From an uncultured Oscillospiraceae bacterium (GTDB lineage: Bacteria; Bacillota; Clostridia; Oscillospirales; Oscillospiraceae), in assembly GCA_947624395.1 (NCBI GenBank), contig CANQKA010000001.1, forward strand, positions 16,446-80,445: a DNA stretch of 64,000 nt, in the 5' to 3' direction. Both the position numbers and the translations under genes were made by a program. Below, piece by piece: positions 4,815-53,712 of this stretch; the stretch's first letter is position 1, and every line of letters begins with the position of its first letter. The notes beneath the pieces are model-generated. The model was not told the origin of the DNA and did not search any database. It saw only the letters and a list, made by a program, of their open reading frames with translations.

Positions 4815-4845
4815 GACGTTCCCCTCCCCGCGTTATTTCGCTTAT

Positions 4846-4920: not shown

Positions 4921-4949
4921 TTGCATTTTTCGCGTATACCCGTTATAAT
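4921..4949 (+). promoter_or_regulatory. Putative sigma-A promoter, TTGCAT-17 nt-TATAAT
   Basis: Reads TTGCATttttcgcgtatacccgtTATAAT. It lies 33 nt upstream of the hydrogenase ATG, which has a GGGAGGA RBS. Confidence 0.6.
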
Positions 4950-4981
4950 GTTTAACGACATCTTCATGGGAGGAACAAGCT

Positions 4982-37615: not shown

Positions 37616-37619
37616 GCCC

Positions 37620-40780: not shown

Positions 40781-41829
40781 GACTCTCCTCCCAATGGCCT
40801 GTAGGCCGGTATGCCGTAGTCGTCGAACGTGCTGCCCCGCGCATATACCGCGAGAGCCATATCCAGAAGCGGCAAGGCCGCCAGCGCACCGGTGCCCTCG
40901 CCCAGACGCAGCCCCGCCGTAATGAGGGGCTTTTTGCCCAAGGCCTTTAAAAGCGCGGCACCCACCGGCTCGGCGGAGAGATGGCTTGCCAGGATGGCCC
41001 TGCCCGCCTCCGGCGCCAGACGCACCGCGCACAGCGCCGCCGCCGCGCTGATGGCCCCGTCCATGACCACCGGCAGCCGGTACAGCGCCCCGCCTAAAAA
41101 CAGGCCGCACAGCCCCGCGATGTCGAACCCGCCCACCTTGGCCAGCACGTCCAGCGGGTCAGTCGGGTCCGGTTTGTTCAATGCCAGCGCCGTTTTGACC
41201 GCATGGCACTTGCGGGCAAGCCCATCGTCGGAAAGACCGGCCCCCCGGCCCACGGTGACCTCCGGCGTCAGACCCAGCAGGGCCGACGCCACCGCCGCCG
41301 CAGTTGTCGTGTTGCCGATGCCCATCTCCCCGGCGGCCAGGAGCTTCGTCCCCCTGGCCTTTTCCGCCGCCGCCAATTCTATGCCGATCTCCACGGCCTG
41401 CTCCGCCTGGGTTCGGCTCATGGCGGGACCCAAGGTGATGTCGGCGGTACCATTGCCCACCCGCCGGTCCAGCACGCCGGGGCATGGCGCGAAATCCAGC
41501 ATGCCCATGTCCACCGGCAGGACCCGGCAGTCCGCCACCGCCGCCATTCGATTGGCCGTGGACGCGCTCGCCGCCAATGCCCGGGCCACCACGCCGGTGA
41601 CGGCGCTGCCCGTCTGGGTCACGCCCTGGGCCACCACGCCGTTGTCGGCGCAGAATACGACCAGCGTCCGGGGCCTGAGGGCGATGTCCGCGCTGCCCGT
41701 CATCGCCGCGATATCCTCCAACGCCGTTTCCAACAGCCCCAGACTTCCCAGCGGGTGGGCGCAGTTGGCCCAGCGAGAGTGGGCGGCGGCCCGCGCTTTC
41801 TCATCGCTGGGCAGGATATGACAGTTCAT
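40768..41829 (-). CDS. cobT: Nicotinate-nucleotide--dimethylbenzimidazole phosphoribosyltransferase
   Basis: A 353-aa ORF. KPLGSLG-like PLGSLGLLE, GEMGIGNTT and DGAISAAAAL. Confidence 0.9.
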   Translation of the reverse strand: MNCHILPSDEKARAAAHSRWANCAHPLGSLGLLETALEDIAAMTGSADIALRPRTLVVFCADNGVVAQGVTQTGSAVTGVVARALAASASTANRMAAVADCRVLPVDMGMLDFAPCPGVLDRRVGNGTADITLGPAMSRTQAEQAVEIGIELAAAEKARGTKLLAAGEMGIGNTTTAAAVASALLGLTPEVTVGRGAGLSDDGLARKCHAVKTALALNKPDPTDPLDVLAKVGGFDIAGLCGLFLGGALYRLPVVMDGAISAAAALCAVRLAPEAGRAILASHLSAEPVGAALLKALGKKPLITAGLRLGEGTGALAALPLLDMALAVYARGSTFDDYGIPAYRPLGGESCSP

Positions 41830-43166
41830 CGGCTTGCCTCCTTTGCGGCCAGCACGAACCGGCTCGCCAGTTCAGGCCGTCCGGCGAAGTATAGATGGGG
41901 GAACCCGGCGTACAGCGTGGGCGAGGCGTATCCTTCCGCCCAGGTCCGGCCCGTCACAGGCTTTTGCAGCCGGAACGCCCCGCCGGGACATTCCGTGTCC
42001 CAATAGTGAAATTCGTGTACGTGTACTGTCTCCCCGGCCCGGAACAGCAGACTGTCCTCCCCGGCGATCATATCCGCGTACCCAAAGCGCACGGGCCGGT
42101 CCCGGCGTGTGCCATCACCGGGCAGCACGCCGGCCATGGGAAAGCGCTCCCCCGTTTCGTCCTTCAGGCTTTGGCAGAGGTAGAGATACCCTCCGCACTC
42201 CGCCACGGTGGGCAGCCCGTTTTCCACCGCTTGCCTCACAGCGGCGCGCATGGACCCGTTTTCCGCCAATGCCCGGGCGTGCAGCTCCGGGTACCCTCCC
42301 GGCAGGTACAGCCCGCCGATGTTCTCCGGCAAACGCTCGTCATGCATCGGGCTGAAAAACGCCAGCTCCGCCCCCGCGTCAACCAGCGCGTCCAAGCTCT
42401 CGGCGTAGGCGAAGCAGAACGCCTCGTCAAGCGCCACGGCGATACGGGCCACTGTCGGCGTATGGGGTACGGTCACCGCCTCCGGCGCGGGCCCGTCGCA
42501 CAGGGCCAGCAGCCGGTCTATGTCCGCGTTTGCCTCCAACGCCGCCCCCAGCGCGTCCAGCCGTCCGGTCAGCGCCGGTATCTCCCCGGCGGTCACCAGC
42601 CCCAAATGACGGCTGGGCAGCGCCGCCAGGTCCACGTGGGGCAGAAAGCCCACCACGGGCAGGCCCGTCTCCCGCTCCAACATGGGCGCCAGACTCTCCG
42701 CCAGCGCGGGCGTGCAGTCATTGAGAATAACAGCGGCCAAATGGCTGGGCGTGCGGAAATCATTAAGCCCCTTCACCAGCGCCGCCAGCGTCAGGCTGGC
42801 CCCCTTGGGCCGCAGCACCAGCAGAGCGGGCATGTCCAGCGTGTCCGCCAAATGCCACGCGCTGGCCCTGTCCGTGCCCCCAAGGCCGTCGTAATGGCCC
42901 ATGACGCCCTCGCATATCGCCCCGCCGTGACCAGCCGCGTACCGGGCGTAAACGGCCCGGACCCGGTCTTCCCCGGCCAAAAACAGGTCCAGGTTGTGGC
43001 TGTCCGCCCCCAGAGCCGTCCGGTGGAACATGGGGTCTATGTAATCCGGCCCGCATTTAAAGGCGCACACGTCCACGCCCCGCCGCTGCATGGCCCGCAG
43101 CAGGGCGCAGGTGAGGGCCGTTTTGCCGCCGCCGGATGCCGGCGCGGTCACCAGCAGCCGGATCAT
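41826..43166 (-). CDS. cbiA: Cobyrinate a,c-diamide synthase
   Basis: The start is ATG 43166 (MIRLLVTAPASGGGKTALTCALL...KCGPDYIDP), which overlaps the upstream stop as ATGA; the track start 43613 is an extension. The C-terminal GATase has AECGGYLYL. Confidence 0.9.
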   Translation of the reverse strand: MIRLLVTAPASGGGKTALTCALLRAMQRRGVDVCAFKCGPDYIDPMFHRTALGADSHNLDLFLAGEDRVRAVYARYAAGHGGAICEGVMGHYDGLGGTDRASAWHLADTLDMPALLVLRPKGASLTLAALVKGLNDFRTPSHLAAVILNDCTPALAESLAPMLERETGLPVVGFLPHVDLAALPSRHLGLVTAGEIPALTGRLDALGAALEANADIDRLLALCDGPAPEAVTVPHTPTVARIAVALDEAFCFAYAESLDALVDAGAELAFFSPMHDERLPENIGGLYLPGGYPELHARALAENGSMRAAVRQAVENGLPTVAECGGYLYLCQSLKDETGERFPMAGVLPGDGTRRDRPVRFGYADMIAGEDSLLFRAGETVHVHEFHYWDTECPGGAFRLQKPVTGRTWAEGYASPTLYAGFPHLYFAGRPELASRFVLAAKEASR

Positions 43167-44353
43167 GACCGGCCTCCCGTGATGAGAAACACCGGGTCGT
43201 TGGCTTGGAGCATGTGCAGCTGCCCCGCCCTCTTCACCCCGCTCACGGCGATCTGCACGATGTCCGGCTCCACGCCCAGGCGGGCAAAGCCCTCCACCGC
43301 GGCGTGCACCGTCTCCAGCGTCACGGCGCTGACACATGCCCGCACGGCCTGATTTTTCCCAAAGGCCGCGTCCAAAATGGCCCCCAACTTCCCGCCGCTG
43401 CCGCCGATAAACACCGCGTCCGGCGCGGGCAAATTTTCCAGCGCCTCCGGGGCTGTGCCTTGCACGACCGACAGGTTCCAGGCGTAAAACTTCTCCCGGT
43501 TTTGCCGGATCAACTCGCAGGCGTCGGTGTCTCGCTCCACGGCGTACACCCGCCGCGCCAGCGCTGCCAGCTCCACGCTGACGCTGCCCGTTCCCGCGCC
43601 CACGTCCCAGCACACGTCATGGGGCGTCACCGCCAGCTTGGATAAAACCGCCGCCCGGACCGTCTGCTTGGTCATGGGCGTGTTGCCCCGGATAAACACA
43701 TCGTCCGGCCAGCCGGGGGTCCGGCGTGGCAGCACCGGGGCCGCCTCCGCCAACAGCACGCTCAGGGGCGCGAAAGATTTTTCCGCCAGCGCCGCCGCCG
43801 TGCCGGAGATCATGCGCTCGCCGGGGCACGCCAGGTTTTCCCCCACCGTGACGGCAAGCCCGCCAAGCCCCGCCCGGACCAGCTGCCCGCACAGTTCCGC
43901 CGGACCCAGCTTCCCGCCGGTCAAAAAGAACACGGGCTTGCCGCCCATGAGCTCCGCCGGCGCGTCCGCGTCCACGCCGTGGGCCGACGCCAAATGCCAG
44001 TCCTGCCAGGGCCGGCCCAGCCGTGCGGCCAGCATTTGCACGCTGGATATACCGGGCAGCACGGCCGTGTCATAACCCCGCTCGCGCAAAAGCGGCAACA
44101 ATGACCGCGCCCCGGAGAAAAAGCCGCTGTCCCCGCTGAATACCACCGCCGCACGCTCACAGTCCAGCGCCTCCAGCGCGGCCAGCATATCCCGGGCCGT
44201 GCTGGCCGGATATGCGGGACATTCGTACAGCGCCCCGAGACTTTCCAACAGTCTTGGCGCGCCCACCAGGGCCTGGGCCTGGGTCAGAGCCGCCAAAGCC
44301 TGGGCGGTCAGGGTATCCGGTCCGGCTCCCGCGCCGATCAGCGTCACTTGCAT
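43163..44353 (-). CDS. cbiET: Fused cobalt-precorrin-7 (C5)-methyltransferase / cobalt-precorrin-6B (C15)-methyltransferase (decarboxylating)
   Basis: A 396-aa ORF. The N-terminal tetrapyrrole methylase reads IGAGAGP...SGDSGFFS. The C-terminal SAM-MTase reads DVGAGTGSVSVE. Confidence 0.9.
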   Translation of the reverse strand: MQVTLIGAGAGPDTLTAQALAALTQAQALVGAPRLLESLGALYECPAYPASTARDMLAALEALDCERAAVVFSGDSGFFSGARSLLPLLRERGYDTAVLPGISSVQMLAARLGRPWQDWHLASAHGVDADAPAELMGGKPVFFLTGGKLGPAELCGQLVRAGLGGLAVTVGENLACPGERMISGTAAALAEKSFAPLSVLLAEAAPVLPRRTPGWPDDVFIRGNTPMTKQTVRAAVLSKLAVTPHDVCWDVGAGTGSVSVELAALARRVYAVERDTDACELIRQNREKFYAWNLSVVQGTAPEALENLPAPDAVFIGGSGGKLGAILDAAFGKNQAVRACVSAVTLETVHAAVEGFARLGVEPDIVQIAVSGVKRAGQLHMLQANDPVFLITGGRS

Positions 44354-45087
44354 TTCAAAAGCTCCTTACAATATTGCAGCACCGTTTCGTAGTCCTCGCC
44401 GTCCTCCACTGGCCGGCGCAGGACGATCAGCGTCGCGCCAGCTTCAGACGCGGCCCTGGCCTTTGCATCGAACCCACCGGGCCCGCCGCCGTCCTTGGTC
44501 ACCAGATAGCGGATATCAAACTGCCGCAGCAGCGCCAGGTCCAGCTCCGCGGAAAACGGTCCCTGCATGGCGATGATGTTCCGGCTGGGGATGCCCGCCA
44601 AAGCGCACAGCGCAAGGCTCTCCGCCGCCGGGAGCACCCGAGCGTACAGCCGCGCCCTGTCCAGCCCTGCGAAAGCTTGCAGTTCCCTGGACCCGGTAGC
44701 CAAAAGCACGTTGCCCGGTCTATCCGCCAGATACGCCGCCGCGCTTTCCGCGTCCGGCACGGTCACGGCGTCGGCGGGAAGCTTGCTTTCCGGCCGCAGC
44801 AGCCGCTTGTAGGCCACCCCCGCCAGCTCTGACGCGGCCCGGATATTGGCCGTGGCAGCCGTGGCGTAAGGGTGGGTAGCGTCCACGCACAGGTCCGCCC
44901 CGGATAAAACCGCCACCATGCCGCCCGCGTCCAGATGTCCGGTGCGGACATCAACGCCCTGGGCCACGCCCTGCTGCTCCCGGCCATAGTCCGTGGCCAC
45001 GCAGACCGTGACCGACGCGCCCAGCGCCGCCAGCGCGTGGGACAGTTCCCGGCCCTCGGTCGTTCCGCCGAATACCACGATCTTCAC
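44344..45087 (-). CDS. cbiJ: Cobalt-precorrin-6A reductase
   Basis: The start is taken at GTG 45087 (VKIVVFGGTTEGREL...), which overlaps the cbiH stop as GTGA. DATHPYA and LVTKDGG motifs are present. Confidence 0.85.
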   Translation of the reverse strand: MKIVVFGGTTEGRELSHALAALGASVTVCVATDYGREQQGVAQGVDVRTGHLDAGGMVAVLSGADLCVDATHPYATAATANIRAASELAGVAYKRLLRPESKLPADAVTVPDAESAAAYLADRPGNVLLATGSRELQAFAGLDRARLYARVLPAAESLALCALAGIPSRNIIAMQGPFSAELDLALLRQFDIRYLVTKDGGGPGGFDAKARAASEAGATLIVLRRPVEDGEDYETVLQYCKELLKCK

Positions 45088-45815
45088 AGCCCATACCCCC
45101 TGGGCGTAATGAGCCTGTCGCCCTGCACGAAAGTGGCTCTGCTGCCCACAAACACGGTGGTGAACATGTCCACAGCTTCTTCCCGCAGCGCGGCCAGGGG
45201 CAGGATACGGCGTGTCTCGCCGGCGCGTCCGATGTTGCGGACCCAGCCGCATGCCGTGTCCGGGCTTTTCCCTGCGTCCAGCAGCACATCGCAGGCCCTG
45301 CGCAGATGGTCTGGTCTTCGGCTGGACGCGGGGTTATAAAGGCACAGCACGAAATCCCCCGCCGCCGCTGCCCGCAGCCGCCGCTGGATCATGTCCCAGG
45401 GCGTGAGCAGGTCGGATAGAGAAATCACGCAAAAATCGTGGCCCAACGGCGCGCCCAGGGCCGCCGCCCCCGCCAGCGCCGCCGTCACGCCGGGGATGAC
45501 CTCGATGTCCGCCGCCGGGTAGGCCTCCGCCAGCTCCAGCACCGGCGCGGCCATGCCGTACACCCCGGCGTCACCGCCGCACACCAGCGCCACGGTTTTT
45601 CCCGCCGCCGCCATTTCCAGCGCGGCGCGGCACCGCTCCGGCTCCCGGCGCATGGGCGTGGTATGGATTTGCTTGCCAGGGTACATGTCCCGGATGAGGC
45701 CTACATATGTGTCATAGCCGCACAGCACGCCGGCCTCGTCCAGCGCGGCCCGTGCCTGACCGGTCATCATTGCCGGGTCGCCGGGGCCGATGCCCACCAC
45801 GAACAGCTTACCCAT
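45084..45815 (-). CDS. cbiH: Cobalt-precorrin-3B (C17)-methyltransferase
   Basis: A 243-aa ORF. MGKLFVVGIGPGDPAMMT...VCGGDAGVYGMA...LYNPAS. Confidence 0.9.
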   Translation of the reverse strand: MGKLFVVGIGPGDPAMMTGQARAALDEAGVLCGYDTYVGLIRDMYPGKQIHTTPMRREPERCRAALEMAAAGKTVALVCGGDAGVYGMAAPVLELAEAYPAADIEVIPGVTAALAGAAALGAPLGHDFCVISLSDLLTPWDMIQRRLRAAAAGDFVLCLYNPASSRRPDHLRRACDVLLDAGKSPDTACGWVRNIGRAGETRRILPLAALREEAVDMFTTVFVGSRATFVQGDRLITPRGYGL

Positions 45816-46803
45816 CGAGCCACCTCCACGTGAACCGGCAGGGCCTGAGCGCCACGGCCATGGTGACGCCGCCGCCGGCCATCTTTTTCCACCGCAAAAC
45901 CCCGCCGGAGGCCAGCACAGCCGCCCGCTCGCACACGTTGTCCACCCCGGTCACGGTTTGGACAAAAGCGGACGACGTAAACTCCCCCGGCACCGCGCCC
46001 AGCGCGCCGGCGCTATAAGTCAAAAGCGGCCAGCCGTGGGCGTTGCAAAACCCCAGCAGTCCCGGCTCGTTTTGCTTGAGATCGATGGACGCCACGGCGC
46101 AAATGGCCTCCGGGCGCAGCCCGGTCCTTTCCAGCATGCCCGCCAGTGCCTCTTCCAGCGCGGCCTGATCTATGCCGCTTTTGCACCCCACGCCCAGCAC
46201 GGCCACCCGAGGCGCCAGCCGCAGCGCGTCCGTTTGCGTATCCCGCACGTCCAGGCGCACGTCGCAGTTTTCATCGTCCGTCAGCTCCACCCCCGCCGGA
46301 GGCTCACCCTCAATGGGCCAAGGGCTATGCAGCCGTATAGACCCGTCGGCCAGCAGCCGGCCTGAGATCGTCTTGATTTTTTCAGGGTCCAGCACGGCGC
46401 AGTTTTGGCTGCGCGCCCAGGCGTCCACGGCGAACACGCCCCCCGCGTCCGTGGCCGTGGTGACGGCGGCCACAGCGCCGCAGACACGGGCGATGGACCG
46501 GGCCAGATCGTTTGCCCCGCCCAAATGCCCGCTGAGCAGCGGCACGGCGAAATGGCCGTACTCGTCCACCGCCACCACCGCCGGGTCCCGCGTCTTGTCC
46601 CGCACGTACGGCGCGATGGCCCGCACGGCGATACCCGCCGCGCCCACGAATATTAACCCCGCGCCGGCATTAAACCGCGCCGCCGTCCACCCGTCCAGGT
46701 CAAGCGGCTCTCCGCATCTGGCCGCCTCGCCGCCCAATGCGCCGGCCAGTTTTTCGGCCAGTTCCATGCCCCTGTCTGAAAAGGCCAGATAATATAGCTT
46801 CAT
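45808..46803 (-). CDS. cbiG: Cobalt-precorrin-5A hydrolase
   Basis: A 331-aa ORF. The GAAGIAVRAIAP...PAVVAVDE.G.FAVPLLSGHLGGAN N-domain and the ASIDLK...TVTGVDNVCERAA C-domain are present. Confidence 0.9.
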   Translation of the reverse strand: MKLYYLAFSDRGMELAEKLAGALGGEAARCGEPLDLDGWTAARFNAGAGLIFVGAAGIAVRAIAPYVRDKTRDPAVVAVDEYGHFAVPLLSGHLGGANDLARSIARVCGAVAAVTTATDAGGVFAVDAWARSQNCAVLDPEKIKTISGRLLADGSIRLHSPWPIEGEPPAGVELTDDENCDVRLDVRDTQTDALRLAPRVAVLGVGCKSGIDQAALEEALAGMLERTGLRPEAICAVASIDLKQNEPGLLGFCNAHGWPLLTYSAGALGAVPGEFTSSAFVQTVTGVDNVCERAAVLASGGVLRWKKMAGGGVTMAVALRPCRFTWRWLDG

Positions 46804-47558
46804 GGCCCCTCCCCCTGGCGAAAGCCGGTGGTAAAGCTGGGGTCATAGAGCTTGCTTCGCTCATAGTCCGGACCCAGAAAGTCCCCCACCAAAATCAGCG
46901 CCGTGTTTTGGATACCAGCCTCTTGTCCAAACCGGGCCAGCGTACCCACCGTGCAGCGCACCACCCGCTGCTCCGGCCAGGTGGCCTTGTACACCAGCGC
47001 GGCGGGGGTATCGGGCGTATATGCCCCCTGCAGCAGGGCCTCCTGCACCGCCGGCAGCATCCCGGCGGAGAGAAAGAGCACCATGCTGGCCCCGTGTTCG
47101 GCCAGGGCGGACAGCGCCTCCCGCTCCGGCACGGCCGTCCGTCCGGCAAGACGGGTGATGATGACCGTCTGGCTCACACCGGGCAGGGTGTACTCGGCGT
47201 TCAATGCCGCGGCCGCGCCGCAAAAGCTGGACACCCCCGGCGTCACGTCGTAGGCAGCGCCGGCGGCTTTCAGCGCGTCCATCTGCTCCCGGATAGCCCC
47301 GTACAGGCTGGGATCGCCGGTGTGCAGCCGTACGGCGGTCTGGCCCGCCTTTTCCGCGGCCAGCAGCACGTCCAGCACCTGTTCCAGCGTCATCTCCGCG
47401 CTGTTGTACACCCGGCAGCCGTCTTTGGCATAGGCCAGCAGCGCAGGGTTCACCAGACTTCCCGCGTACACGATCGCGTCCGCTGTGCGCAAATGCTCCG
47501 CGCCTCGCAATGTGATCAGGTCCGCCGCGCCGGGACCTGCGCCCACAAAATGTATCAT
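46800..47558 (-). CDS. cbiF: Cobalt-precorrin-4 (C11)-methyltransferase
   Basis: A 252-aa ORF. MIHFVGAGPGAADLITLRG...VYAGSLV...RLHTGDPSLYGA. Confidence 0.95.
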   Translation of the reverse strand: MIHFVGAGPGAADLITLRGAEHLRTADAIVYAGSLVNPALLAYAKDGCRVYNSAEMTLEQVLDVLLAAEKAGQTAVRLHTGDPSLYGAIREQMDALKAAGAAYDVTPGVSSFCGAAAALNAEYTLPGVSQTVIITRLAGRTAVPEREALSALAEHGASMVLFLSAGMLPAVQEALLQGAYTPDTPAALVYKATWPEQRVVRCTVGTLARFGQEAGIQNTALILVGDFLGPDYERSKLYDPSFTTGFRQGEGP

Positions 47559-47567
47559 AGTTCTCTC

Positions 47568-48698
47568 CTATCCCTGCCAACGGGTCAAGATCGCACTGGC
47601 CCCGTCCGTACAGCCCAGCGGGCCGAATTCATTGGAAAACACCGCCGCGCCGGCCGTATAAGCCCCCCGGACCCGCAGGTCCAAATGCCGCTGGACGGCA
47701 GTCAGAATGCTTTGCAGCACAGGCTCACGCAGCCCCGCTTCATCCAGTAGCGCCAAGCATGCGTCCGCCGTGGCCGCGTCCATGAGCCCTCGGCATAACG
47801 CCCGGTCCGCCCCGGCTAAAGCGGCGTGGGCGCAAAAGACCTCCGCTCGACCGTCGGCATAGCGGGAGTGGGTGTTCATGACTCCCGCCGCCAGCTTGAC
47901 CAGCTTGCCGATGTGCCCCACCAAAAGCACCTCCGAAAACCCCAGTTGGGCGGCGGCGTCCAGAGCGTCGCCAATAAAATTGGAGCACTTCACCACCGGC
48001 GCCAGTCGGTCCCAGCCCTGCTCGCGCACATAGTCCATGCCGTAATTGCCCGGCGTCAGGATGAGCCGCCCGCCCCGCGCCGCAACCTGGCGCAGCTCCA
48101 ATTCGATGGTGTCCACCAGGGCCTTTTCGCTCATGGGCTCCACCACGCCGGAAGTGCCCAGAATGGAAATGCCGCCCTCCACGCCCAGTTGGGGGTTAAA
48201 CGTGCGTTTGGCCGCTTCCTCCCCGCCGGGGACCGAGAGCGTGACGGCCAGCCCAGCCGTATAGCCGCATTTTTCGCACACGGCCCGCACCTGGTCCTCG
48301 ATCATGCGCCTTGGGACGCTGTTGATGGCCGCCGCGCCCACCGGCTGGTCCAGCCCCGGCCTCGTCACCCGGCCCACGCCCGGGCCGCCGTCGATGGTGA
48401 TACCGGGAGCGCTTGTCCTGCGGACCGTGGCCACGATAGCCAGCCCGTCGGTCACGTCCGCATCGTCGCCCGCGTCCTTCTCCACGGCGCAGACGGCGCT
48501 TTCACCCTCCATGCGGCAGTAAAGCGGCGCCACGGACACGGGTACGCCCTTGGGCGTGGTCAACTCCAGCGCCTTTGGCCCTTGGCCTGTGAGCAGCAGC
48601 GTGGCAGCCCCCTGGGCCGCCAGGGCCGCGCAGGTGCCGGTGGTATAGCCGCAGCGCAAAAGCTTTTGTCCCGCCCGGACATAGTGCTCAAAAGCCAT
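47568..48698 (-). CDS. cbiD: Cobalt-precorrin-5B (C1)-methyltransferase
   Basis: A 376-aa ORF. LRCGYTTGTCAALAA...GISILGTSGVVEPMS. GGAGG RBS. Confidence 0.9.
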   Translation of the reverse strand: MAFEHYVRAGQKLLRCGYTTGTCAALAAQGAATLLLTGQGPKALELTTPKGVPVSVAPLYCRMEGESAVCAVEKDAGDDADVTDGLAIVATVRRTSAPGITIDGGPGVGRVTRPGLDQPVGAAAINSVPRRMIEDQVRAVCEKCGYTAGLAVTLSVPGGEEAAKRTFNPQLGVEGGISILGTSGVVEPMSEKALVDTIELELRQVAARGGRLILTPGNYGMDYVREQGWDRLAPVVKCSNFIGDALDAAAQLGFSEVLLVGHIGKLVKLAAGVMNTHSRYADGRAEVFCAHAALAGADRALCRGLMDAATADACLALLDEAGLREPVLQSILTAVQRHLDLRVRGAYTAGAAVFSNEFGPLGCTDGASAILTRWQG

Positions 48699-49476
48699 AG
48701 AGCTCCTCCCACCTGAGCCCTTCAGCCCTGGCCTGGGCCAGCAACTCTTCCGTCACGCCGAACAGCCGCGCCATAGTGCCCGGGGTGAAAATCTCCTCCG
48801 GCGGACCGATACGGTCGATGACACCGTCCGCCACGCACACCAGCGTGTCGGACACCCGGCGGGCCAGGGCCAGCTCGTGCAGGCTCATGAGCACGGCCAG
48901 CCCTTCCCGCGCCGCCAGGTCCTTCAGCACCGTCAACAGCTTTAATTTATACCGCACGTCCAGGTACGACGTGGGCTCGTCCAGCACCAGCAGCCGTGGC
49001 CGCTGGCATATGGCCCGTGCCAGCATCACAAGCTGGCGCTGCCCGTCGCTGACCCGGGTAAAATCCTTGTCCGCAAGGGCTGTCACGCCCACTAAATCCA
49101 TGGCCCGCCGGACCTCTGCCCGGTCGGCCTCGGTGAGAAGCCCCAGCCGCCCGGTATATGGATACCGCCCCGCGCTGACCACATCGAAGCATGTCATCAG
49201 CTCCGGCGCGGGCCGTGCCGTCATCAATATCGCCTCGGTCCTGGCCAGGTCCCGCTCGGGCACAGCGCGCAGGTCCCGGCCATCCAGGACCACCGCGCCG
49301 CCGGTAGGCGCAAGCTGGCGGGTGATGGTTTTCAGGACCGTGGACTTGCCCGCCCCGTTGGGGCCAATGAGCGTGACGATGCGCCCCGGCTGTACGGAAA
49401 GCTCGATGCCATTTACCACGGTCACGCCGCCGTAGCCCACGGCCAGGTCCTTTGTATAGAGCAGCCCGTCACCCAT
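48688..49476 (-). CDS. ABC importer ATP-binding protein (FecE/BtuD-like)
   Basis: A 262-aa ORF. Walker A GPNGAGKST, signature VSDGQRQ and Walker B LLVLDEPTS. Confidence 0.9.
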   Translation of the reverse strand: MGDGLLYTKDLAVGYGGVTVVNGIELSVQPGRIVTLIGPNGAGKSTVLKTITRQLAPTGGAVVLDGRDLRAVPERDLARTEAILMTARPAPELMTCFDVVSAGRYPYTGRLGLLTEADRAEVRRAMDLVGVTALADKDFTRVSDGQRQLVMLARAICQRPRLLVLDEPTSYLDVRYKLKLLTVLKDLAAREGLAVLMSLHELALARRVSDTLVCVADGVIDRIGPPEEIFTPGTMARLFGVTEELLAQARAEGLRWEELYGF

Positions 49477-50509
49477 CGTCCCGCCCTCCCTGTCGCCGGA
49501 GCATGAGCCATATGACCACCGGCGCGCCGAACACCGCCGTCACGGAGCCGATGGCCAGCTCCGTGGGCGCGAACAGCGTCCGGGCCAATAAATCGCAGAA
49601 AAGGCAGAACACTGACCCGCCCAGAAAGCAGGCCGGCAGCGCCGCCAGGGGCTTTGCGGTGCCAAAAAGGCTCTTCACCAGGTGGGGCACCGCCACGCCC
49701 ACGAAGGACACCGGCCCGGCGAAGGCCGTGACGCAGGCGGACAGAAGGCTGGACAGCACAATGAGCGCCGCCCGGAGCCGCCGGACGTTCACGCCCATAT
49801 TGGCCGCGTACACCGGCCCCAGCTGGTAAGCCCCCATGGGCTTGGACAGCGCCATGGCGCAGCCGAACCCCGCCAGCACCACCAGCGCCATGGTGCGCAC
49901 ATTGGCCCAGGTGACGCCGGAAAAGCTGCCCATTGACCAGTTGTGCAGGTTCACGATGTTGGCGTCGTCCGCGAAGGTGACCAGCAGGTCCGTGATGGCG
50001 GCGCATATGTACCCGATCATCACGCCGCATATAATGAGCGTGCCCATGCGCCGGACCTTGCCGGACACGGCCAGTATAAACCCCGTAGACAGCAGCGACC
50101 CGGCGAAGGCCGCGGCTATGAGCGCGGCGGACGGCAGCGCCAGCCCCCGGCCCAGGGCGGCGATCATCACCAGCGCCACCGCCAGCTTGGCCCCGGAGGA
50201 AATGCCCAGCACGAATGGCCCCGCGATGGGGTTGGCGAAAAACGTTTGCAGCAAAAATCCTGACAGTGCCAGCGCCCCGCCCAGCAGCGCCGCCGCCAGC
50301 GTCCGGGGAAAGCGTATCTGCCACAGTATCCGCGCCTGGGCGCTCTGGCCGCCCGGGTGGCGCAGCAGCGCCAGAATTTCTCCCGGCCGCATGCCCACGG
50401 TGCCGATGCCCAAGTTCATGGCCAGCAGCAGCCCCAGCAGCGCCAAAAGCACGGCGTAGCCCAGCATATACCGTTTTTTTCGGGCCAAGATCGCGGCCCC
50501 CTTTCTCAT
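49469..50509 (-). CDS. FecCD/BtuC-family ABC importer permease
   Basis: The start is ATG 50509 (MRKGAAILARKKRYMLGY...), which overlaps the upstream stop as ATGA. IRFPRTLAAALLGGALALSG is typical of the family. Confidence 0.9.
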   Translation of the reverse strand: MRKGAAILARKKRYMLGYAVLLALLGLLLAMNLGIGTVGMRPGEILALLRHPGGQSAQARILWQIRFPRTLAAALLGGALALSGFLLQTFFANPIAGPFVLGISSGAKLAVALVMIAALGRGLALPSAALIAAAFAGSLLSTGFILAVSGKVRRMGTLIICGVMIGYICAAITDLLVTFADDANIVNLHNWSMGSFSGVTWANVRTMALVVLAGFGCAMALSKPMGAYQLGPVYAANMGVNVRRLRAALIVLSSLLSACVTAFAGPVSFVGVAVPHLVKSLFGTAKPLAALPACFLGGSVFCLFCDLLARTLFAPTELAIGSVTAVFGAPVVIWLMLRRQGGRDDG

Positions 50510-51621
50510 GTGAGCCGGTGCAGGAAAGTCAAATCCGCCTCGTCCCCTTGGCCGGATATCACGGCGTACAGGTCCGCCAGCAGGTCCCCCAGGCCCGTGG
50601 CCCGCTGGTACATATCCCGGCCCATGCACCACACGTCCCCGCTCTGCACGGCCTTAAAGTCCGCCAGCAGCGGGCTTTTTTGCAGCAGCTGGTCGATCGT
50701 TTCCAGCTCGGCGTCGATGGTGCTGTTATAAATGAGCACGTCCGCGTCCCGTGCCGCGTCATAAAACGCCTCCATCTGCATGTTCATGGTGGACAGATCG
50801 TTGTCGTCCTCACCGTCAGAGTGGAGGACATATTCGCCCCCGGCCATCTCGATCAGCCGGGCGATATAGTCCCCCGGCTTGCGCACGTTCACGGCGCCGT
50901 TGGAGTTGATGAAGAAAAACGCCACCGTGGGACCGCCGTCATTATTCTCAGCGCTTTCCAGCACGGTCGCCAGCCGCTCCATCTGAGCGTCGAAAAAGGC
51001 CGCGGCCTCTTCCTCCCGGCCGGTGAGCAGACCGTACAGCTTGATCCACTCCATCCGCCCCAAAGGGTTCGGCTCATAGCTGGACCGCTCCACCAGCACG
51101 GGGATACCCAGCGCCTCCAGCTGTTCGGCGGTCTCCGGACTGTGCCAGATCATGGTGGACTCGATGGCGATGTCGGCACGCTCCGACAGCACCAGCTCAT
51201 AGTCCGGGGAAGCGTATTTGCCCGCATAGAGCATGCTGCCCTCGTCCAGCGCCTCGACCACCTCCGGCAGCGTCCAGTTGGCGGCGGTGGTGCTGGTCAG
51301 GCGCACCGCGTCCAGCGCGTCCAGCGCCCGGAAAAAGTCCATCGCCGCCGACGCCGCCAGATACACCCGGTCCAGGGGCCCGCGCAGCACGGTGATGTCC
51401 TCGTCCAGATCGTCCGGGGCGTCGGCCCCCTCGGGCGTCAGCCAGTACCGCTCCCGGCCCGCTATGGTGATGAGCGCGGCCCCGTCCGGGTAATAGTCCA
51501 CGGAAAACTGCTGGGCGTAAGCAAGCTCCATGGAGCCCACGGGCCCTTCCGCCGCATGCGCGGGAACGGCCCACAGCCCCAGGCACAGCGCCGCCAGCAG
51601 CCAGCACAGCGCCCGTCTCAC
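50506..51621 (-). CDS. Class III periplasmic-binding-protein-type substrate-binding protein (BtuF/FhuD-like), secreted
   Basis: A 371-aa ORF with a GTG start that overlaps the upstream stop as GTGA. Signal peptide MRRALCWLLAALCLGLWAVPAHA. The context is between the chelatase-like gene and the FecCD permease. Confidence 0.85.
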   Translation of the reverse strand: MRRALCWLLAALCLGLWAVPAHAAEGPVGSMELAYAQQFSVDYYPDGAALITIAGRERYWLTPEGADAPDDLDEDITVLRGPLDRVYLAASAAMDFFRALDALDAVRLTSTTAANWTLPEVVEALDEGSMLYAGKYASPDYELVLSERADIAIESTMIWHSPETAEQLEALGIPVLVERSSYEPNPLGRMEWIKLYGLLTGREEEAAAFFDAQMERLATVLESAENNDGGPTVAFFFINSNGAVNVRKPGDYIARLIEMAGGEYVLHSDGEDDNDLSTMNMQMEAFYDAARDADVLIYNSTIDAELETIDQLLQKSPLLADFKAVQSGDVWCMGRDMYQRATGLGDLLADLYAVISGQGDEADLTFLHRLT

Positions 51622-53303
51622 GGCCGGGTCTGGATAGACGCGCCGTCGAAGCGCAGGGTGTACTCGATCTCGTGGGGCGTGCCCATGGCCACCGTGTCCG
51701 CCACGATGGGGATGTCCTCATCGAAGGCCGGCACGGGGATGTCGAAGGCCGAGTTGCCCTCGGTGTTGGCCATGTCGTACCGCACGCCGTCCACCTTCAT
51801 GTAATCATAGTTGGCGCTGCTCCACACGATATGGGCCGTGGCCTTGCCGTCCTCCACCGTGAGCGCGGCGGGGCTTTCCACGGTGGCCTTCCCGGACCCG
51901 CCGGAGAGGGTCACCTCCACGGTGTACGTCCCGTCGGCCAGGTCCAGGCCATCCGATTCGGCAAAAGCGTCCTCCGGCAGCGCGTCGGAGCGGAACACCA
52001 GGGTCCTGTCGTACCAGGTCTGCTTATTTTTGCTGAACGCCGCCAGGGGTACGTCGGCGTTCAGCGCTTCCACCGGCACAGAAAACACATGCGCGCCGTC
52101 GCCGTTTTCCCCATAGGGGATATAGTCCGCCGTATCCGCTTTGGCGGCCTCGTCCGCCGTGCCGGGGTAGACATACAGATACCCCGTGCCGCCCATGGTC
52201 ATTTCGGCGGTCATGGCGCCGTCGGCCACCGTCAGGGTGCAGGAGACCACGCGGAACATGGATGAGCTGGAATCCACGGCGATGTCATATGCGCCGTCCA
52301 GCAGGTCCTCCGCGTACACGGGACCGTTCGCCTCATCCTGTCCCGCCGCCGGGGCAAGCTCTCCCTGGCCCAGTGTGTCCATAGCGGCCCTTGCATGGGA
52401 CACTAAAAGCGCCTGTATGTCCTCCATCTCTCCCAGGCCCTGCACGACGCACGCCACGTCGTACCCGGCGGCCTGGAAAGCGCTCTTCCAGGAGTCCTCC
52501 CCGTCCCCGGCCATATCGTTGTTGGCGTGGTCCCCGGCCACGATCATCAGCGGCCGGAGCACCACCCGGCTGTAATCCCCCGCGCCCACGGCGGCCAGCA
52601 CGTCGTCAAGATCGGGTTTTGCCTCCACGGTGCCCACGAAGTAGTTTGCATACCCCCCGTCCGTCAACGCCCGCTGCATTTTGGCGTACACGCCGTTGGA
52701 CGCGGCCTCGGTGCCGTGGCCCATGAACACGATGGCGGTCCGGCCGTCGTCGTATGCCGCCGTGGCGGCGGTGACAGCCTTTGCCACCGCCTGAAAGTCG
52801 GCGTCGTCGGCCAGGACCGGCTTGCCCAGCGCCACCGCCTCAAAATCGTCCGCGTACCGAGCCACCGCGTCCGCCAGGTCGTTGTACTCATAGCCGTCCA
52901 TCAAATGGGTAGGCTGGACCACCAGCCGCTTCACGCCGTTGTCCACGGCCCGCTGCAACGCCTGGTCCACGTTGTCGATGACCTCCCCGTCCCGCTCGAG
53001 CACGTGGTCGATGACGATCTGGCTGGTGAAGCCCCGGCGCACGCTCCAGTCGGGAAACGCCTTCTCCAGCGCCGTCTCGATGGCGCCGATGGTCAGGCGG
53101 CGGTTGTCGTTGAAGCTGGTGCCGAAGCTGACCACCATCAGTTCATTGTCCCCGATGCCGTCGGCGTTGCGGGCGTCGTCCAGAGAGGCGTCGCCGGTCT
53201 CGTAGTTTTCCTCGTCCTCCTCGGCTTCCTCGGCGGCAAAAGCGGTGGCCACCAGAGAGAACACAAGCAGCGCGGCCAGCAGGATGGATACAAACTTCTT
53301 CAT
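51618..53303 (-). CDS. Secreted CbiK-type (class II) chelatase-fold protein fused to two NEAT-like domains
   Basis: The start is ATG 53303 (MKKFVSILLAALLVFSLVATAFA, a signal peptide) after GGAG; the track start 53714 would run through the riboswitch. CbiK-like region: VVSFGTSFND...VVQPTHLMDGYEY...IVFMGHGTEA...LRPLMIVAGDHANNDM. Two roughly 120-aa modules follow (LDGAYDIAVDSSSSMFRVVSCTLTVADGAMTA... and ADGTYTVEVTLSGGSGKATVESPAALTVEDGKATAHIVWSS...). Confidence 0.75.
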   Translation of the reverse strand: MKKFVSILLAALLVFSLVATAFAAEEAEEDEENYETGDASLDDARNADGIGDNELMVVSFGTSFNDNRRLTIGAIETALEKAFPDWSVRRGFTSQIVIDHVLERDGEVIDNVDQALQRAVDNGVKRLVVQPTHLMDGYEYNDLADAVARYADDFEAVALGKPVLADDADFQAVAKAVTAATAAYDDGRTAIVFMGHGTEAASNGVYAKMQRALTDGGYANYFVGTVEAKPDLDDVLAAVGAGDYSRVVLRPLMIVAGDHANNDMAGDGEDSWKSAFQAAGYDVACVVQGLGEMEDIQALLVSHARAAMDTLGQGELAPAAGQDEANGPVYAEDLLDGAYDIAVDSSSSMFRVVSCTLTVADGAMTAEMTMGGTGYLYVYPGTADEAAKADTADYIPYGENGDGAHVFSVPVEALNADVPLAAFSKNKQTWYDRTLVFRSDALPEDAFAESDGLDLADGTYTVEVTLSGGSGKATVESPAALTVEDGKATAHIVWSSANYDYMKVDGVRYDMANTEGNSAFDIPVPAFDEDIPIVADTVAMGTPHEIEYTLRFDGASIQTRP

Positions 53304-53363
53304 GATACACACTCCTTTTTTGATACAGCGTTCCCGGAGCGAGGGCGTGTGGACGGTCGGGGG

Positions 53364-53402
53364 CGCAAAAAACGCCCTTTGTCCCACATGGGACAAAAGG
53401 CG
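53364..53402 (-). terminator. Riboswitch-controlled intrinsic terminator (expression platform)
   Basis: The minus strand reads GCCTTTTGTCCC-atgt-GGGACAAAGGGC followed by GTTTTTTG. It lies between the aptamer and the start codon. Confidence 0.75.
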
Positions 53403-53504
53403 GCAACGACCCAGGCCCCGCCGCGGGAGCGTTTGCCCCCACGGCAGCGCCGGTACCGATACGGCCAAGTCCCTCGTGGCCTGGGGCCCGCTGAAAGCCC
53501 CTGT

Positions 53505-53712
53505 ACCAAACGCGCCGGCAGGTTTCCTGGCTGACGGATCATTACATAAAGCAGCCTTCCCACCATAACGGCAGTGACCGCGCTTTTCGCGCCATGCCTT
53601 ATGCTCCCCGAACACAGTGACGAGTTCGTGCGGGATTCGCACCCGCTTCCCTTTTACCCCCTGGCCCCGCGGCGTACTGCGGTCAGGGGCACCGGACGTT
53701 TTCTCCGTATTC
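53505..53712 (-). promoter_or_regulatory. Cobalamin (AdoCbl) riboswitch aptamer
   Basis: The minus strand reads ...GGTGCCCC...GGGGTAAAAGGGAAGCGGGTGCGAATCCCGCACGAACTCGTCACTGTG...GGGGAGCA...GTCACTGCC...GGGAAGGC...GTCAGCCAGGAAACCTGCC. The conserved core and a B12-box-like element were recognised from memory. Confidence 0.9.

Follow-up and report, generated by a model that had tools for sequence, protein, structure and literature searches.

Why would a chelatase of the cobalamin pathway be exported from the cell, with NEAT-like domains fused behind it and a cobalamin riboswitch ahead of its gene? This question is raised by a locus in a 64,000-nt stretch of DNA from an uncultured Oscillospiraceae bacterium (here, the window). 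The chelatase-NEAT gene lies on the minus strand at 53303..51618, with its ATG at 53303 and its stop codon at 51620-51618, and encodes a product of 561 aa. Residues 1-23 (53235..53303, minus strand) make up a Sec signal peptide consisting of MKK, a hydrophobic core and AFA|AEE; the leader, MKKFVSILLAALLVFSLVATAFA|AEE, has an n-region, an h-region of 17 residues and an A-x-A site, and it lacks a lipobox Cys. Leaders were called by inspection and with a regular expression. A signal-like N-terminus is present in 113 of the 120 best homologues, 91 of which have a lipobox, and together with the leader features of the window protein this upholds the signal peptide claimed in an earlier note on this DNA. 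The family-wide occurrence of signal and lipoprotein leaders supports the prediction that the protein is extracytoplasmic. The leader is followed by an acidic, family-specific linker (residues 24-54; 53142..53234, minus strand) with the motif ENYETGDASLDDARNADGIGDNE. Ahead of exported CbiK units, TGDA..D..N.D..G..E is conserved at a level of at least 90%, and the acidic TGDA motif was not found in the cytoplasmic CbiK encoded at one locus, L053.

The chelatase-NEAT gene is indeed the first cistron after a cobalamin riboswitch, since aptamer, terminator and ATG follow in that order on the minus strand. The aptamer (RF00174; 53500..53711, minus strand) scores 95.5 bits (gathering score, 31.5; E 1.6e-22) and covers model positions 1-189 of 189. 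In the expression platform, an intrinsic terminator (53363..53402, minus strand) combines a 13-bp stem, including 8 GC pairs, with a TTTTTT tail, and its hairpin is present in the minimum-free-energy fold too. Downstream of the terminator lie AAAAAGGAG and then the ATG at 53303, ahead of which there is a good Shine-Dalgarno sequence. With aptamer and expression platform on the same strand, and with RF00174 or RF01482 in relatives, the gene belongs to a cobalamin riboswitch regulon.

The CbiK class II chelatase domain spans residues 55-308 (52380..53141, minus strand). It matches PF06180 at 253.3 bits (cutoff, 26.2; E 3e-75) over profile positions 3-261 of 262, and its cobalt-site residues His196, Glu227 and His259 align with His145, Glu175 and His207 of Salmonella CbiK. 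The chelatase region is therefore complete, as previously described, with an intact metal triad. Of 271 unique exported CbiK domains, 268-270 retain the His-Glu-His triad, and all chelatase motifs are retained as well. By analogy with the homologues CbiK(P) and FetB, the exported CbiK is predicted to insert cobalt. The score against NCBIfam NF047852, the equivalog for biosynthetic sirohydrochlorin cobaltochelatase, was 218 bits, below the cutoff of 400. Public annotation labels the exported CbiK family “sirohydrochlorin cobaltochelatase”.

Two mutually homologous modules (hhalign probability 96%, E 1e-9) follow the chelatase at residues 333-442 (51978..52307, minus strand) and 454-559 (51627..51944, minus strand). 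The gathering score of the Pfam NEAT family, PF05031, was not reached, with module 2 alone matching at 22.6 bits against 32.8. Some relatives exceed this threshold (55 bits for homologue P0362), and precomputed PF05031 matches are on record for many relatives. In an AlphaFold model of residues 328-561 (pLDDT 91), the modules have a NEAT beta-sandwich fold. A Foldseek search of the PDB with this model returned NEAT domains as matches 1-21, among them IsdH N2N3 (E 9e-7) and IsdX1 (target-normalised TM-score 0.69); target-normalised TM-scores against single NEAT domains were 0.6-0.7, and two-NEAT proteins aligned across both modules. The model and these matches bear out the earlier description of the modules as NEAT-like.

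The YxxxY motif of the last NEAT strand, which supplies the Tyr ligand to heme iron, was not found in either module of the window protein. Module 1, with the lip SSSSMF (M349), has K427xxxY431 in its place, and module 2, with the short lip GGSGK, has H544xxxY548. Across the family, the first position of the motif is His, Lys or, less often, Tyr, and the Tyr at +4 is conserved; homologue P0227 keeps the canonical YxxxY. From these sequence alignments, Lys or His together with Tyr may act as axial cobalt ligands. The window protein ends in ...RFDGASIQTRP and has no LPXTG or NPQTN sortase sorting signal, and its relatives are N-terminally lipidated rather than sortase-anchored. Giant NEAT-like proteins with many repeats also exist.

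Immediately downstream are genes for an ABC importer. A class III substrate-binding protein of 371 aa (Peripla_BP_2; 50506..51621, minus strand) starts at a GTG that overlaps the chelatase-NEAT stop codon (GTGA), a FecCD/BtuC-type permease (49469..50509, minus strand) starts at a probable ATG at 50509 that overlaps the binding-protein stop codon (ATGA), and an ABC ATPase (48688..49476, minus strand) overlaps the permease by 8 nt. These overlaps are consistent with the translational coupling proposed earlier for the whole set. Pfam scores of 99.9 bits for Peripla_BP_2, 261.2 for FecCD and 102 for the ABC ATPase correspond to a BtuFCD-type (type II) composition. The top NCBIfam models are BtuC (208.9 bits) for the permease, which equals its relative at locus L087 in length, and “corrinoid ABC transporter ATPase” (206 bits) for the ATPase, both under cutoff; in the same search, the binding protein matched no BtuF model. 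Among PDB sequences, it best matches a binding protein of the hydroxamate type (E 1e-5), and its structural model most resembles PhuT and ShuT (also RhuT and BhuT), all of which bind heme, with BtuF at rank 26 and similar E-values.

Directly after the importer, the operon continues with 15 genes for anaerobic B12 synthesis that the earlier note overlooked: CbiD-CbiF-CbiG-CbiH-CbiJ-CbiET-CbiA-CobT-CobU-CobS-CobC-CbiB-CobD-CbiP-CbiC (33935..48698, minus strand), all transcribed in the same direction. By ORF coordinates, CbiD overlaps the ABC ATPase by 11 nt. The 64-kb window yielded no CbiL, uroporphyrinogen methyltransferase, SirC or cytoplasmic CbiK/CbiX, and the ORFs scanned there included no further chelatase and no cobalt transporter, whether CbiMNQO-type or other. 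The chelatase complement of four cultured carriers was taken from gene counts in Hungate1000 Supplementary Table 12 (PMC6118326). Pseudobutyrivibrio sp. 49, R. flavefaciens Y1, Lachnospiraceae bacterium AC2012 and Butyrivibrio sp. AE2015 are each listed with a single PF06180 gene and without PF01903, and the last three also lack the TIGR01469 methyltransferase (PMC6118326). The cassette CbiK is a lipoprotein in each of the four. By gene content, the pathway of all four is nearly complete in other respects and has this lipoprotein as its sole CbiK/CbiX, where “sole” refers to published Pfam counts for draft or complete genomes, with CobN-type or novel chelatases falling outside the count.

Conservation of the cassette extends to 80 species-level genome loci, which have the order riboswitch-CbiK-NEAT1-NEAT2-binding protein-permease-ATPase, and all components share one strand in 65. 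A B12 riboswitch lies directly upstream in 68 of the 77 assessable loci (88%), which come from different species, so the link to B12 is conserved beyond the window. cbi/cob genes flank 42 of 67 loci, with corrin-ring genes in 29 of those 42. At L064, the exported CbiK directly follows CbiJ within a cbi operon. L038, L041 and L044 have one ORF between CbiD and CbiF, which matches CbiL at L038 (TIGR01467, 208.7 bits) and is a close sequence relative of that ORF at the other two. Split, tandem and binding-protein-fused variants of the cassette occur, including proteins with two or three CbiK units and natural fusions of NEAT to binding protein (P0365, P0368) or of CbiK, NEAT and binding protein (P0115). 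L053 and L056 also encode a cytoplasmic CbiK, leaderless at L053, and in Agathobaculum (L001) and Oscillospiraceae (L085) the cassette stands alone, the surrounding 8-9 kb being free of cbi genes. A full-text literature search found no characterised example of the exported CbiK-NEAT architecture, in agreement with the earlier note. The CbiK-NEAT-importer module is thus widespread and uncharacterised.

A leader on CbiK and adjacent Peripla_BP_2, FecCD and ATPase genes place the window protein among exported CbiK paralogues. Its CbiK domain finds its best solved-structure match in Porphyromonas gingivalis IhtB/FetB (PDB 9b86, E 1e-41), a surface lipoprotein that similarly adjoins a Peripla_BP_2/FecCD/ATPase importer, IhtACDE (PMC12094164). 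FetB is a Co and Mn chelatase acting on porphyrin, with no Fe-insertion or dechelatase activity, and production of Mn-PPIX in vivo depends on fetB (PMC13065792). P. gingivalis lacks the steps to precorrin-2 (PMC6461909). Unlike the window protein, IhtB/FetB belongs to an outer-membrane system with a TonB-dependent receptor, has no NEAT modules, and has been discussed for heme, iron and Mn-porphyrin, not for B12. The next exported homologue, Desulfovibrio vulgaris CbiK(P) (PDB 2xvx-2xvz; match E 4.5e-33), also has an intact Co site, but it is a Gram-negative periplasmic protein without the NEAT-like modules and the TGDAS motif. CbiK(P) is reportedly chelatase-active, and is said to bind heme at the interface of its tetramer and to occur alongside a cytoplasmic CbiK in D. 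vulgaris. Following Lobo 2008, we take the B12-regulated cbiK of Desulfovibrio to be the gene for this periplasmic protein. A single B12 element in Desulfovibrio controls cbiK-cbiL and btuCDF (PMC545781), the same logic of chelatase, type II ABC importer and B12 riboswitch as in the window cassette. This element and the Co/Mn activity of FetB contradict the earlier statement that exported CbiK proteins are linked to heme, not B12 (PMC545781, PMC13065792).

Other known systems share parts of the module. Cytoplasmic Salmonella enterica CbiK (PDB 1qgo, 2xwp; E 6e-40) shares the full-length chelatase domain, with the SFGTS, GHG, VE and GDHA motifs as well as the metal triad, whereas the window protein adds the signal peptide, the N-terminal acidic motif and two C-terminal domains. 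The Isd, IsdX and Hbp2 relays of Staphylococcus, Bacillus anthracis and Listeria share the NEAT fold, tandem or multiple NEAT domains and an importer with a class III binding protein, implying a chain from receptor to NEAT, binding protein and permease. In contrast to these relays, the window protein has HxxxY and KxxxY for YxxxY, a shortened 3-10 “lip”, a sub-threshold Pfam NEAT score, no sortase anchor, a B12 riboswitch instead of iron control, and a chelatase fused in front. A functional analogy is possible with Bacteroides BtuG, BtuH and BtuJ, extracellular accessories of riboswitch-controlled corrinoid importers (PMC13616437). Profile, PDB-sequence and structure searches found no CbiK or NEAT relationship to these proteins, which bind finished cobamides and serve auxotrophs, whereas the window cassette type is found mostly within cbi operons.

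Outside the cell, the module probably either inserts cobalt into a B12-type pigment or captures such a pigment, feeding the downstream B12 pathway; in the broadest terms, the cassette is likely to supply the B12 economy with a cobalt tetrapyrrole of some kind. A more specific proposal, advanced tentatively and with a little less than an even chance of being correct, is that the cassette is a B12-repressed extracytoplasmic entry station, with cobalt insertion taking place extracellularly and the resulting cobalt-tetrapyrrole being relayed into the anaerobic cobalamin pathway. When adenosylcobalamin is scarce, the riboswitch would let transcription through the terminator. Outside the cell, the secreted protein, which is lipidated in most relatives, would use its CbiK site to bind Co2+ together with an early tetrapyrrole that carries no metal; this substrate would most likely be sirohydrochlorin (factor II), obtained from the community by salvage. 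The CbiK domain, which retains the catalytic residues, would form the cobalt complex, and the two NEAT-fold modules could take it over through axial ligation by KxxxY and HxxxY. The modules would hand the ligand to the class III binding protein, a transfer suggested by the observed fusions, and the FecCD/ATPase importer would move it inside, delivering cobalt and macrocycle together. The ligand would then join the pathway at CbiL/CbiH, the pathway enzymes being encoded directly downstream.

Several lines of evidence point to such biosynthetic entry: the riboswitch with its terminator, the family-wide export signals and triad retention; conservation of the cassette, its cbi/cob flanks and the operon positions at L064, L038, L041 and L044; the 15 downstream B12 genes with no second chelatase or cobalt transporter in 64 kb; and the single lipoprotein CbiK of four carriers, three of them without TIGR01469. 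Further support comes from the NEAT fold, HxxxY and KxxxY, YxxxY in P0227, the PhuT/ShuT-like binding protein and the fusions, and from the exported homologues FetB, a Co/Mn chelatase, and CbiK(P). Consistent with salvage, tetrapyrrole-precursor salvagers are mostly Firmicutes (PMC6461909). Against biosynthetic entry, the cassette contains no exporter gene that would account for a sirohydrochlorin source, and the cytoplasmic CbiK at L053, at L056 and in D. vulgaris means that the outside enzyme is not always the sole one. Stand-alone cassettes and the BtuC and corrinoid-ATPase models also weigh against it, as do the double and triple CbiK tandems, which resemble capture modules rather than enzymes.

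The stand-alone cassettes, the BtuC and corrinoid-ATPase models and the tandems also favor the main rival, corrinoid scavenging, in which non-catalytic CbiK/NEAT surface receptors would hand cobamides, cobinamide or cobyric acid to a BtuFCD-type importer, a role like that of Bacteroides BtuG, BtuH and BtuJ. A riboswitch in 68 of 77 loci fits scavenging too, and joint repression of uptake and synthesis is common in B12 producers; CbiK multiplication and giant NEAT-like repeat proteins recall multi-domain receptors, and CbiK and BtuF share a chelatase-like two-lobe fold (SCOP). However, scavenging leaves the near-perfect retention of the Co2+ site, Glu included, unexplained, and it would mean that four cultured carriers possess about ten corrin-ring genes without any cobaltochelatase. 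No BtuF model matches the binding protein, whose fold is nearest to that of heme-binding proteins, NEAT pockets are known to take planar metalloporphyrins with a free axial site but are not known to take nucleotide-loop cobamides, and a literature search found no precedent for CbiK or NEAT binding a corrinoid. Scavenging is rather unlikely, and triad retention and the sole CbiK/CbiX of the four carriers favor biosynthetic entry over the earlier suggestion of a Gram-positive analogue of surface B12-capture proteins. The broad wording of that suggestion, surface handling of cobalt-tetrapyrroles, stands; its B12-capture version is less well supported.

The remaining alternatives are less probable. 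The exported CbiK and the acidic TGDAS motif might bind scarce Co2+ in a sulfidic habitat and pass the metal to the importer, replacing CbiMNQO in cbi operons, given the conserved cobalt site, B12 feedback typical of cobalt importers (PMC7689651), the lack of a CbiMNQO-type gene among the ORFs scanned in the window, and cbiK-bearing Desulfovibrio species without known cobalt transporters (PMC545781). This is improbable: Peripla_BP_2/FecCD systems normally carry chelates rather than free cations, the pair of NEAT-fold modules would be left without a role, as would their axial-ligand motif, and carriers would still lack a cytoplasmic chelatase. Isd-like uptake of heme, iron or another metalloporphyrin, unrelated to B12, was first proposed for IhtB and CbiK(P), and would suit the NEAT fold and a binding protein that most resembles PhuT, ShuT, RhuT and BhuT. 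CbiK(P) was reportedly purified with heme or porphyrin. FetB, too, was purified with heme or porphyrin, but it has no Fe-insertion or dechelatase activity (PMC13065792). The riboswitch in 88% of loci, cassettes inside cbi operons, replacement of the iron-binding NEAT Tyr by His or Lys, and the lack of a sortase signal or any iron-regulator context seen make heme uptake quite improbable. It is scarcely credible that the protein is an ordinary cytoplasmic CbiK with a mis-called start and decorative extra domains, as its family annotation and its place within a cbi operon might suggest: the Shine-Dalgarno sequence at 53303 is good, leaders and lipoboxes are conserved (113 of 120 homologues), the CbiK equivalog score falls short (218 against 400), and a separate, leaderless true CbiK coexists at L053.

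If correct, the proposed entry of extracellularly formed cobalt-tetrapyrrole would explain how Clostridia can use a full corrin-ring enzyme set while having neither a cytoplasmic cobaltochelatase nor a uroporphyrinogen methyltransferase. A stronger version, which is distinctly unlikely, holds that cobalt insertion is obligatorily extracellular in many gut and rumen Clostridia, with a surface protein as the sole cobaltochelatase, metallating sirohydrochlorin, and a new, non-heme His/Lys class of NEAT domain relaying cobalt-sirohydrochlorin to a dedicated importer; the sirohydrochlorin would be salvaged from neighbours or self-released as a “cobaltophore”. If true, this would add a compartment-crossing step to the textbook B12 pathway, identify the uptake route of “tetrapyrrole precursor salvagers”, and explain Desulfovibrio CbiK(P) and Porphyromonas IhtB/FetB in retrospect.

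The gene for the CbiK-NEAT protein, an exported CbiK fused to two NEAT-fold modules, occupies the position given in the earlier note, 51618-53303, but lies on the minus strand, with its ATG at 53303, its stop codon at 51620-51618 and a product of 561 aa. It is preceded on the same strand by a Shine-Dalgarno sequence, by a strong intrinsic terminator with a 13-bp stem and a T-run (53402..53373, minus strand) and, furthest upstream, by a full-length cobalamin riboswitch aptamer (53711..53500, minus strand; RF00174, 95.5 bits, E 1.6e-22). Importer genes follow, in the order Peripla_BP_2 binding protein, FecCD permease and ABC ATPase. The binding-protein gene overlaps the CbiK-NEAT gene at GTGA, the permease gene overlaps the binding-protein gene at ATGA, and the ATPase and permease genes share 8 nt. 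The ATPase gene also overlaps CbiD by 11 nt, and B12 genes then continue on the same strand, without real gaps, to position 33935: CbiD, CbiF, CbiG, CbiH, CbiJ, CbiET, CbiA, CobT, CobU, CobS, CobC, CbiB, CobD, CbiP and CbiC. Since the cbi and cob genes are contiguous behind the ATPase gene, the riboswitch heads an anaerobic B12 operon of ~20 kb, the first product of which is an exported chelatase. This downstream operon had been missed in the sequence-only reading. The same layout is observed at the locus of a 96%-identical relative, P0003 (MAG GCA_947624385.1). The CbiA ORF as listed (41826-43613, minus strand) is extended at the N-terminus by 150 aa that overlap CbiET; its true start is probably internal, because the family match begins at residue 151.

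None of the ORFs scanned in the 64-kb window was identified as CbiL, uroporphyrinogen methyltransferase, SirC, a cytoplasmic CbiK or CbiX, or a CbiMNQO-type cobalt transporter. CbiL acts right after cobalt insertion. In the window, CbiF directly follows CbiD (46800-48698, minus strand), and three Oscillibacter loci (L038, L041 and L044) have an ORF between the two. That of L038 (12278-13080) scores as CbiL (TIGR01467, 208.7 bits), and those of L041 and L044 are its close sequence relatives. CbiL has been lost or relocated in the window species. On the other side of the riboswitch, a divergent gene for a "putative esterase" (PF00756, 53756-54604, plus strand) starts ~45 nt away, and the relative L087 has a homologue close to its cassette; the PF00756 family also takes in siderophore esterases. 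The window holds a further riboswitch, of the FMN class (RF00050, 113.7 bits; 25545-25656, plus strand), directly 5' of an ECF-transporter S component (PF12822; 25717-26466, plus strand) that is presumably a RibU-type riboflavin importer.

The CbiK-NEAT protein begins with a Sec-type leader, MKKFVSILLAALLVFSLVATAFA, ahead of AEE, and continues with an acidic linker that terminates in ENYETGDASLDDARNADGIGDNE. Pfam places a complete CbiK domain at residues 55-308 (253 bits), and its H196, E227 and H259 align with the cobalt site H145/E175/H207 of Salmonella CbiK. Leaders are present in 113 of the 120 best homologues and lipoboxes in 91 of the 120, so that predicted export is a family trait of these CbiK homologues. 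A mis-called start codon was rejected on the strength of those leaders and of the Shine-Dalgarno sequence at the ATG, and a chance ORF on the Pfam E-value of 3e-75. About three quarters of the homologues are lipoproteins. The window leaders are of the SPase-I type, lacking a lipobox Cys, both in the CbiK-NEAT protein (53235-53303, minus strand; AFA/AEE) and in the binding protein (51553-51621, minus strand; AHA/AEG), and lipobox-free leaders also occur in the 96-97% relatives P0003 and P0241. Of 271 unique exported CbiK domains, 268-270 retain the H/E/H site, alongside the motifs SFGTS, QPTHLM, FMGHGT, GTVEA and VAGDHANNDMA, a pattern that points to strong selection on the chelatase site.

A family-specific acidic motif, TGDAxxD(D/N)PxNxDxIGxxE, precedes exported CbiK units, including each unit of the tandem double and triple forms. 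A longer form, ENY(D/E)TGDASLD(D/N)PxNxDxIGExE, is found in P0001-P0120 and lies in the window at 53142-53234 (minus strand). In Lachnospiraceae CbiK lipoproteins (first ~100 residues; L030, L047, L061, L072 and L028), an extra conserved helical segment, ..VAALIDAIYVQ..T.ET.AQC.AAKEAWDALTD.QKELVEGE..DPDYFG, stands between the lipobox and the TGDAS motif. The acidic motif is missing from the short exported CbiK of L083 and from a leaderless CbiK of L053 (273 aa, 4470-5291), which is ~50% identical to the exported domain and lies just upstream of the riboswitch. L056 has the same layout, and in both loci the genes before the leaderless CbiK are methyltransferase-like, with a B12-binding-domain-like stretch. 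A leaderless CbiK beside the cassette indicates that cytoplasmic and exported paralogues coexist in Anaerovoracaceae. D. vulgaris is said, by Lobo in 2008, to have a cytoplasmic CbiK as well. The outside enzyme is therefore not the sole CbiK in these carriers.

The two C-terminal modules (residues 333-442 and 454-559) are mutually homologous (hhalign probability 96%). Pfam matches NEAT in the second module alone and below threshold (22.6 bits vs 32.8), and a profile search against PDB sequences matched weakly, at the N-terminus only (E 0.07-0.4). When residues 328-561 were modelled with AlphaFold from 21 sequences (pLDDT 91), all of the first 21 PDB matches to the model were NEAT domains, among them IsdH-N2N3, IsdB, IsdX1, IsdX2-N5, Hbp2-N2, IsdC and Hal, with target-normalised TM-scores of 0.6-0.7 for single domains. 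The description of these modules as NEAT-like in the earlier note is thus borne out at the level of the modelled fold. Heme-binding NEAT domains use an iron-binding YxxxY in the last strand. In its place are K427xxxY431 in module 1 and H544xxxY548 in module 2, a correspondence drawn from the hhalign comparison of the two modules and one YxxxY homologue rather than from superposition; the ligand-residue assignments rest on alignments. That homologue has the canonical YxxxY at the same spot, and HxxxY is found in the divergent module 1 of Lachnospiraceae and Anaerovoracaceae. Across the family, H, K or Y fills the first position, and Tyr at +4 is conserved. The NEAT "lip" is shorter in the window modules (SSSSMF; GGSGK) than in IsdX1 and IsdX2. 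Searched alone, the NEAT-like pair yields 2,487 clusters at 50% identity (E<=1e-3), or 1,823 at 1e-10, and the pair also occurs as a separate protein of ~300 aa. Giant NEAT-like proteins (P0361, 1965 aa; P0506, 2538 aa; P0363, P0408 and P0508) have up to nine module matches, lack any further significant Pfam domain and may serve the same system as multi-valent receptors at the surface.

Homologues of the full protein number in the thousands and are annotated, where at all, as "sirohydrochlorin cobaltochelatase"; the others are "hypothetical protein". A census with one genome per species yielded at least 592 relatives among the 600 pattern matches listed. In the best 80 loci of these, the order riboswitch, CbiK, NEAT1, NEAT2, binding protein, permease, ATPase is nearly invariant. 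They come from Oscillospiraceae, Lachnospiraceae, Butyrivibrio, Pseudobutyrivibrio and Ruminococcus flavefaciens, and a few from other phyla. Loci assigned to bins of Gaiellales, Anaerolineales, Prevotella, Flexilinea and Treponemataceae (L021, L023, L051, L058 and L080), some at ~70% identity to the window protein, arose by horizontal transfer or else belong to MAG contigs placed in the wrong bin. Of the 77 loci that could be assessed, 68 have a B12 riboswitch immediately ahead of the cassette and nine have none that could be detected. Detection combined an nhmmer profile, built from ten aptamers confirmed by Rfam, with three Rfam calls. The profile accounts for 65 of the 68 loci, and the others are L053, L056 and L014, where the cassette follows an AdoCbl-variant riboswitch (4688-4815; RF01482, 56.8 bits) and not RF00174. 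Same-strand cbi/cob genes adjoin the cassette at 42 of the 67 loci whose flanks are long enough, 29 of these 42 having corrin-ring genes there, and in L064 the exported CbiK sits right behind CbiJ within a cbi operon.

Departures from the common arrangement concern how the parts are joined. In Agathobaculum, a cobalamin riboswitch (107.7 bits) precedes separate genes for a CbiK lipoprotein, a two-NEAT protein, the binding protein, permease and ATPase, which makes the window gene a Rosetta-stone fusion. CbiK is doubled in P0021, tripled in P0001, and doubled with NEAT2 in P0005. The binding protein is fused to NEAT2 in P0365 and P0368, and CbiK, NEAT2 and binding protein form a single chain in P0115. 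Some Ruminococcus/Ruminiclostridium loci (L067, L071, L075 and L083) are permuted to riboswitch, NEAT2, binding protein, permease, ATPase, CbiK, NEAT1, then CbiA or CbiD, with the NEAT modules split over two proteins and the riboswitch detected in L075 and L083 only. In stand-alone cassettes, the ATPase is ~370 aa long with a C-terminal PF27219 (MJ0874) domain (L001, 11086-12198; L085, 14059-15162), a domain that the 262-aa window ATPase lacks.

Among solved homologues of the window CbiK domain, P. gingivalis FetB/IhtB is the closest (E 1e-41), and D. vulgaris CbiK(P) follows as the second exported protein. We take the Desulfovibrio cbiK that lies under a B12 element to be CbiK(P), following Lobo 2008. 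What exported CbiK paralogues do has been under debate since 2000-2008. Both cbiK-cbiL and btuCDF are controlled by one B12 element in Desulfovibrio (PMC545781). A 2026 paper described FetB/IhtB as a surface Co/Mn chelatase that has no Fe-insertion or dechelatase activity and is needed in vivo for Mn-protoporphyrin production (PMC13065792), and P. gingivalis is without the steps that lead to precorrin-2 (PMC6461909).

Evidence from cultured carriers came from the B12 gene counts per rumen isolate in Hungate1000 Supplementary Table 12 (PMC6118326). Pseudobutyrivibrio sp. 49 (L072), R. flavefaciens Y1 (L079), Lachnospiraceae bacterium AC2012 (L061) and Butyrivibrio sp. AE2015 (L030) each have one PF06180 (CbiK) and zero PF01903 (CbiX); TIGR01469 (methyltransferase) is counted once in the first and zero times in the other three, and corrin-ring and lower-pathway genes are essentially complete in all four (PMC6118326). 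All listed R. flavefaciens strains share the CbiK, CbiX and methyltransferase counts of Y1 (PMC6118326). The cassette CbiK has a lipoprotein leader in all four loci (...AVCGCG, VVGCGS, FTACGQ and FVSCGD, respectively), which places the sole CbiK/CbiX-family chelatase, by published Pfam count, outside the cell in these four genomes. Most of the four isolates cannot make precorrin-2. Shelton et al. (2019) defined such "tetrapyrrole precursor salvagers", mostly Firmicutes (PMC6461909), and the Hungate authors suggested cooperative pathway completion between rumen species (PMC6118326).

B12-repressed surface acquisition of a cobalt tetrapyrrole is a probable role for the cassette. Within it we tentatively favour, at somewhat less than an even chance, cobalt chelation outside the cell followed by inward relay of the product, a model that builds on observed sequence features, fold, conservation, gene order, riboswitch association and gene content, and in which we infer catalysis, ligand identity and transfer. 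When B12 is scarce, the riboswitch would open. Surface CbiK would bind Co2+ together with an early tetrapyrrole that carries no metal, the most plausible being sirohydrochlorin supplied by the community, and form a cobalt complex. The His/Lys-type NEAT modules would take up this complex through axial ligation and hand it over to the binding protein; that modules and binding protein touch directly is supported by the natural fusions. The type-II ABC importer would then pass the complex to CbiL/CbiH and onward.

The main rival, proposed in the earlier note, is that the proteins capture corrinoids at the surface. The B12 riboswitch, the cassettes that stand alone and the multiplication of CbiK units all fit this idea, but it accounts neither for the conserved cobalt site nor for the genomes without any other chelatase, and we consider it rather unlikely. 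The binding protein, annotated at source just as "ABC transporter substrate-binding protein", matched no BtuF model. The heme-binding PhuT, ShuT, RhuT and BhuT are the nearest structures to its model (pLDDT 87.5), with BtuF ranking 26th. This is a lean only, because binding proteins for heme, siderophores and B12 match alike at E ~1e-13 to 1e-12. Uptake of heme or iron by the cassette is improbable, as is, to almost the same degree, delivery of cobalt ions. A cytoplasmic enzyme, set beside the leaders of the family, is hardly credible. Some of the probability is assigned to none of these readings.

CbiK, the NEAT fold, the type-II importer and the B12 riboswitch are already known, and two Gram-negative phyla offer earlier examples of an exported CbiK beside a chelate importer. 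What is new is that CbiK is fused to, or obligatorily paired with, a NEAT class that is divergent and non-YxxxY, that the setting is Gram-positive, that the cassette stands at the head of cbi operons, and that there is evidence for an exported CbiK as the only cobaltochelatase. Full-text literature searches found no description of the CbiK-NEAT architecture. In the gut and rumen, Lachnospiraceae, Oscillospiraceae and ruminococci count among the chief producers and consumers of corrinoids. The surface steps of B12 metabolism in these Gram-positive bacteria are a stated knowledge gap (PMC13616437). If cobalt is inserted outside and the complex relayed inward, tetrapyrrole-precursor salvage, a category that dates from 2019 (PMC6461909) and has no known uptake route, would gain its first candidate transporter; the cassette would also give exported CbiK paralogues a function and provide the first NEAT-type domain other than a heme receptor. 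If corrinoids are captured instead, it would be the first Gram-positive surface corrinoid-capture system. Two open questions, the role of exported CbiKs and how precursor salvagers feed the corrin pathway, become directly testable. Either reading bears on genome-based predictions of which organisms make, need or share B12; genomes are scored as "having CbiK" despite the enzyme being outside the cell.
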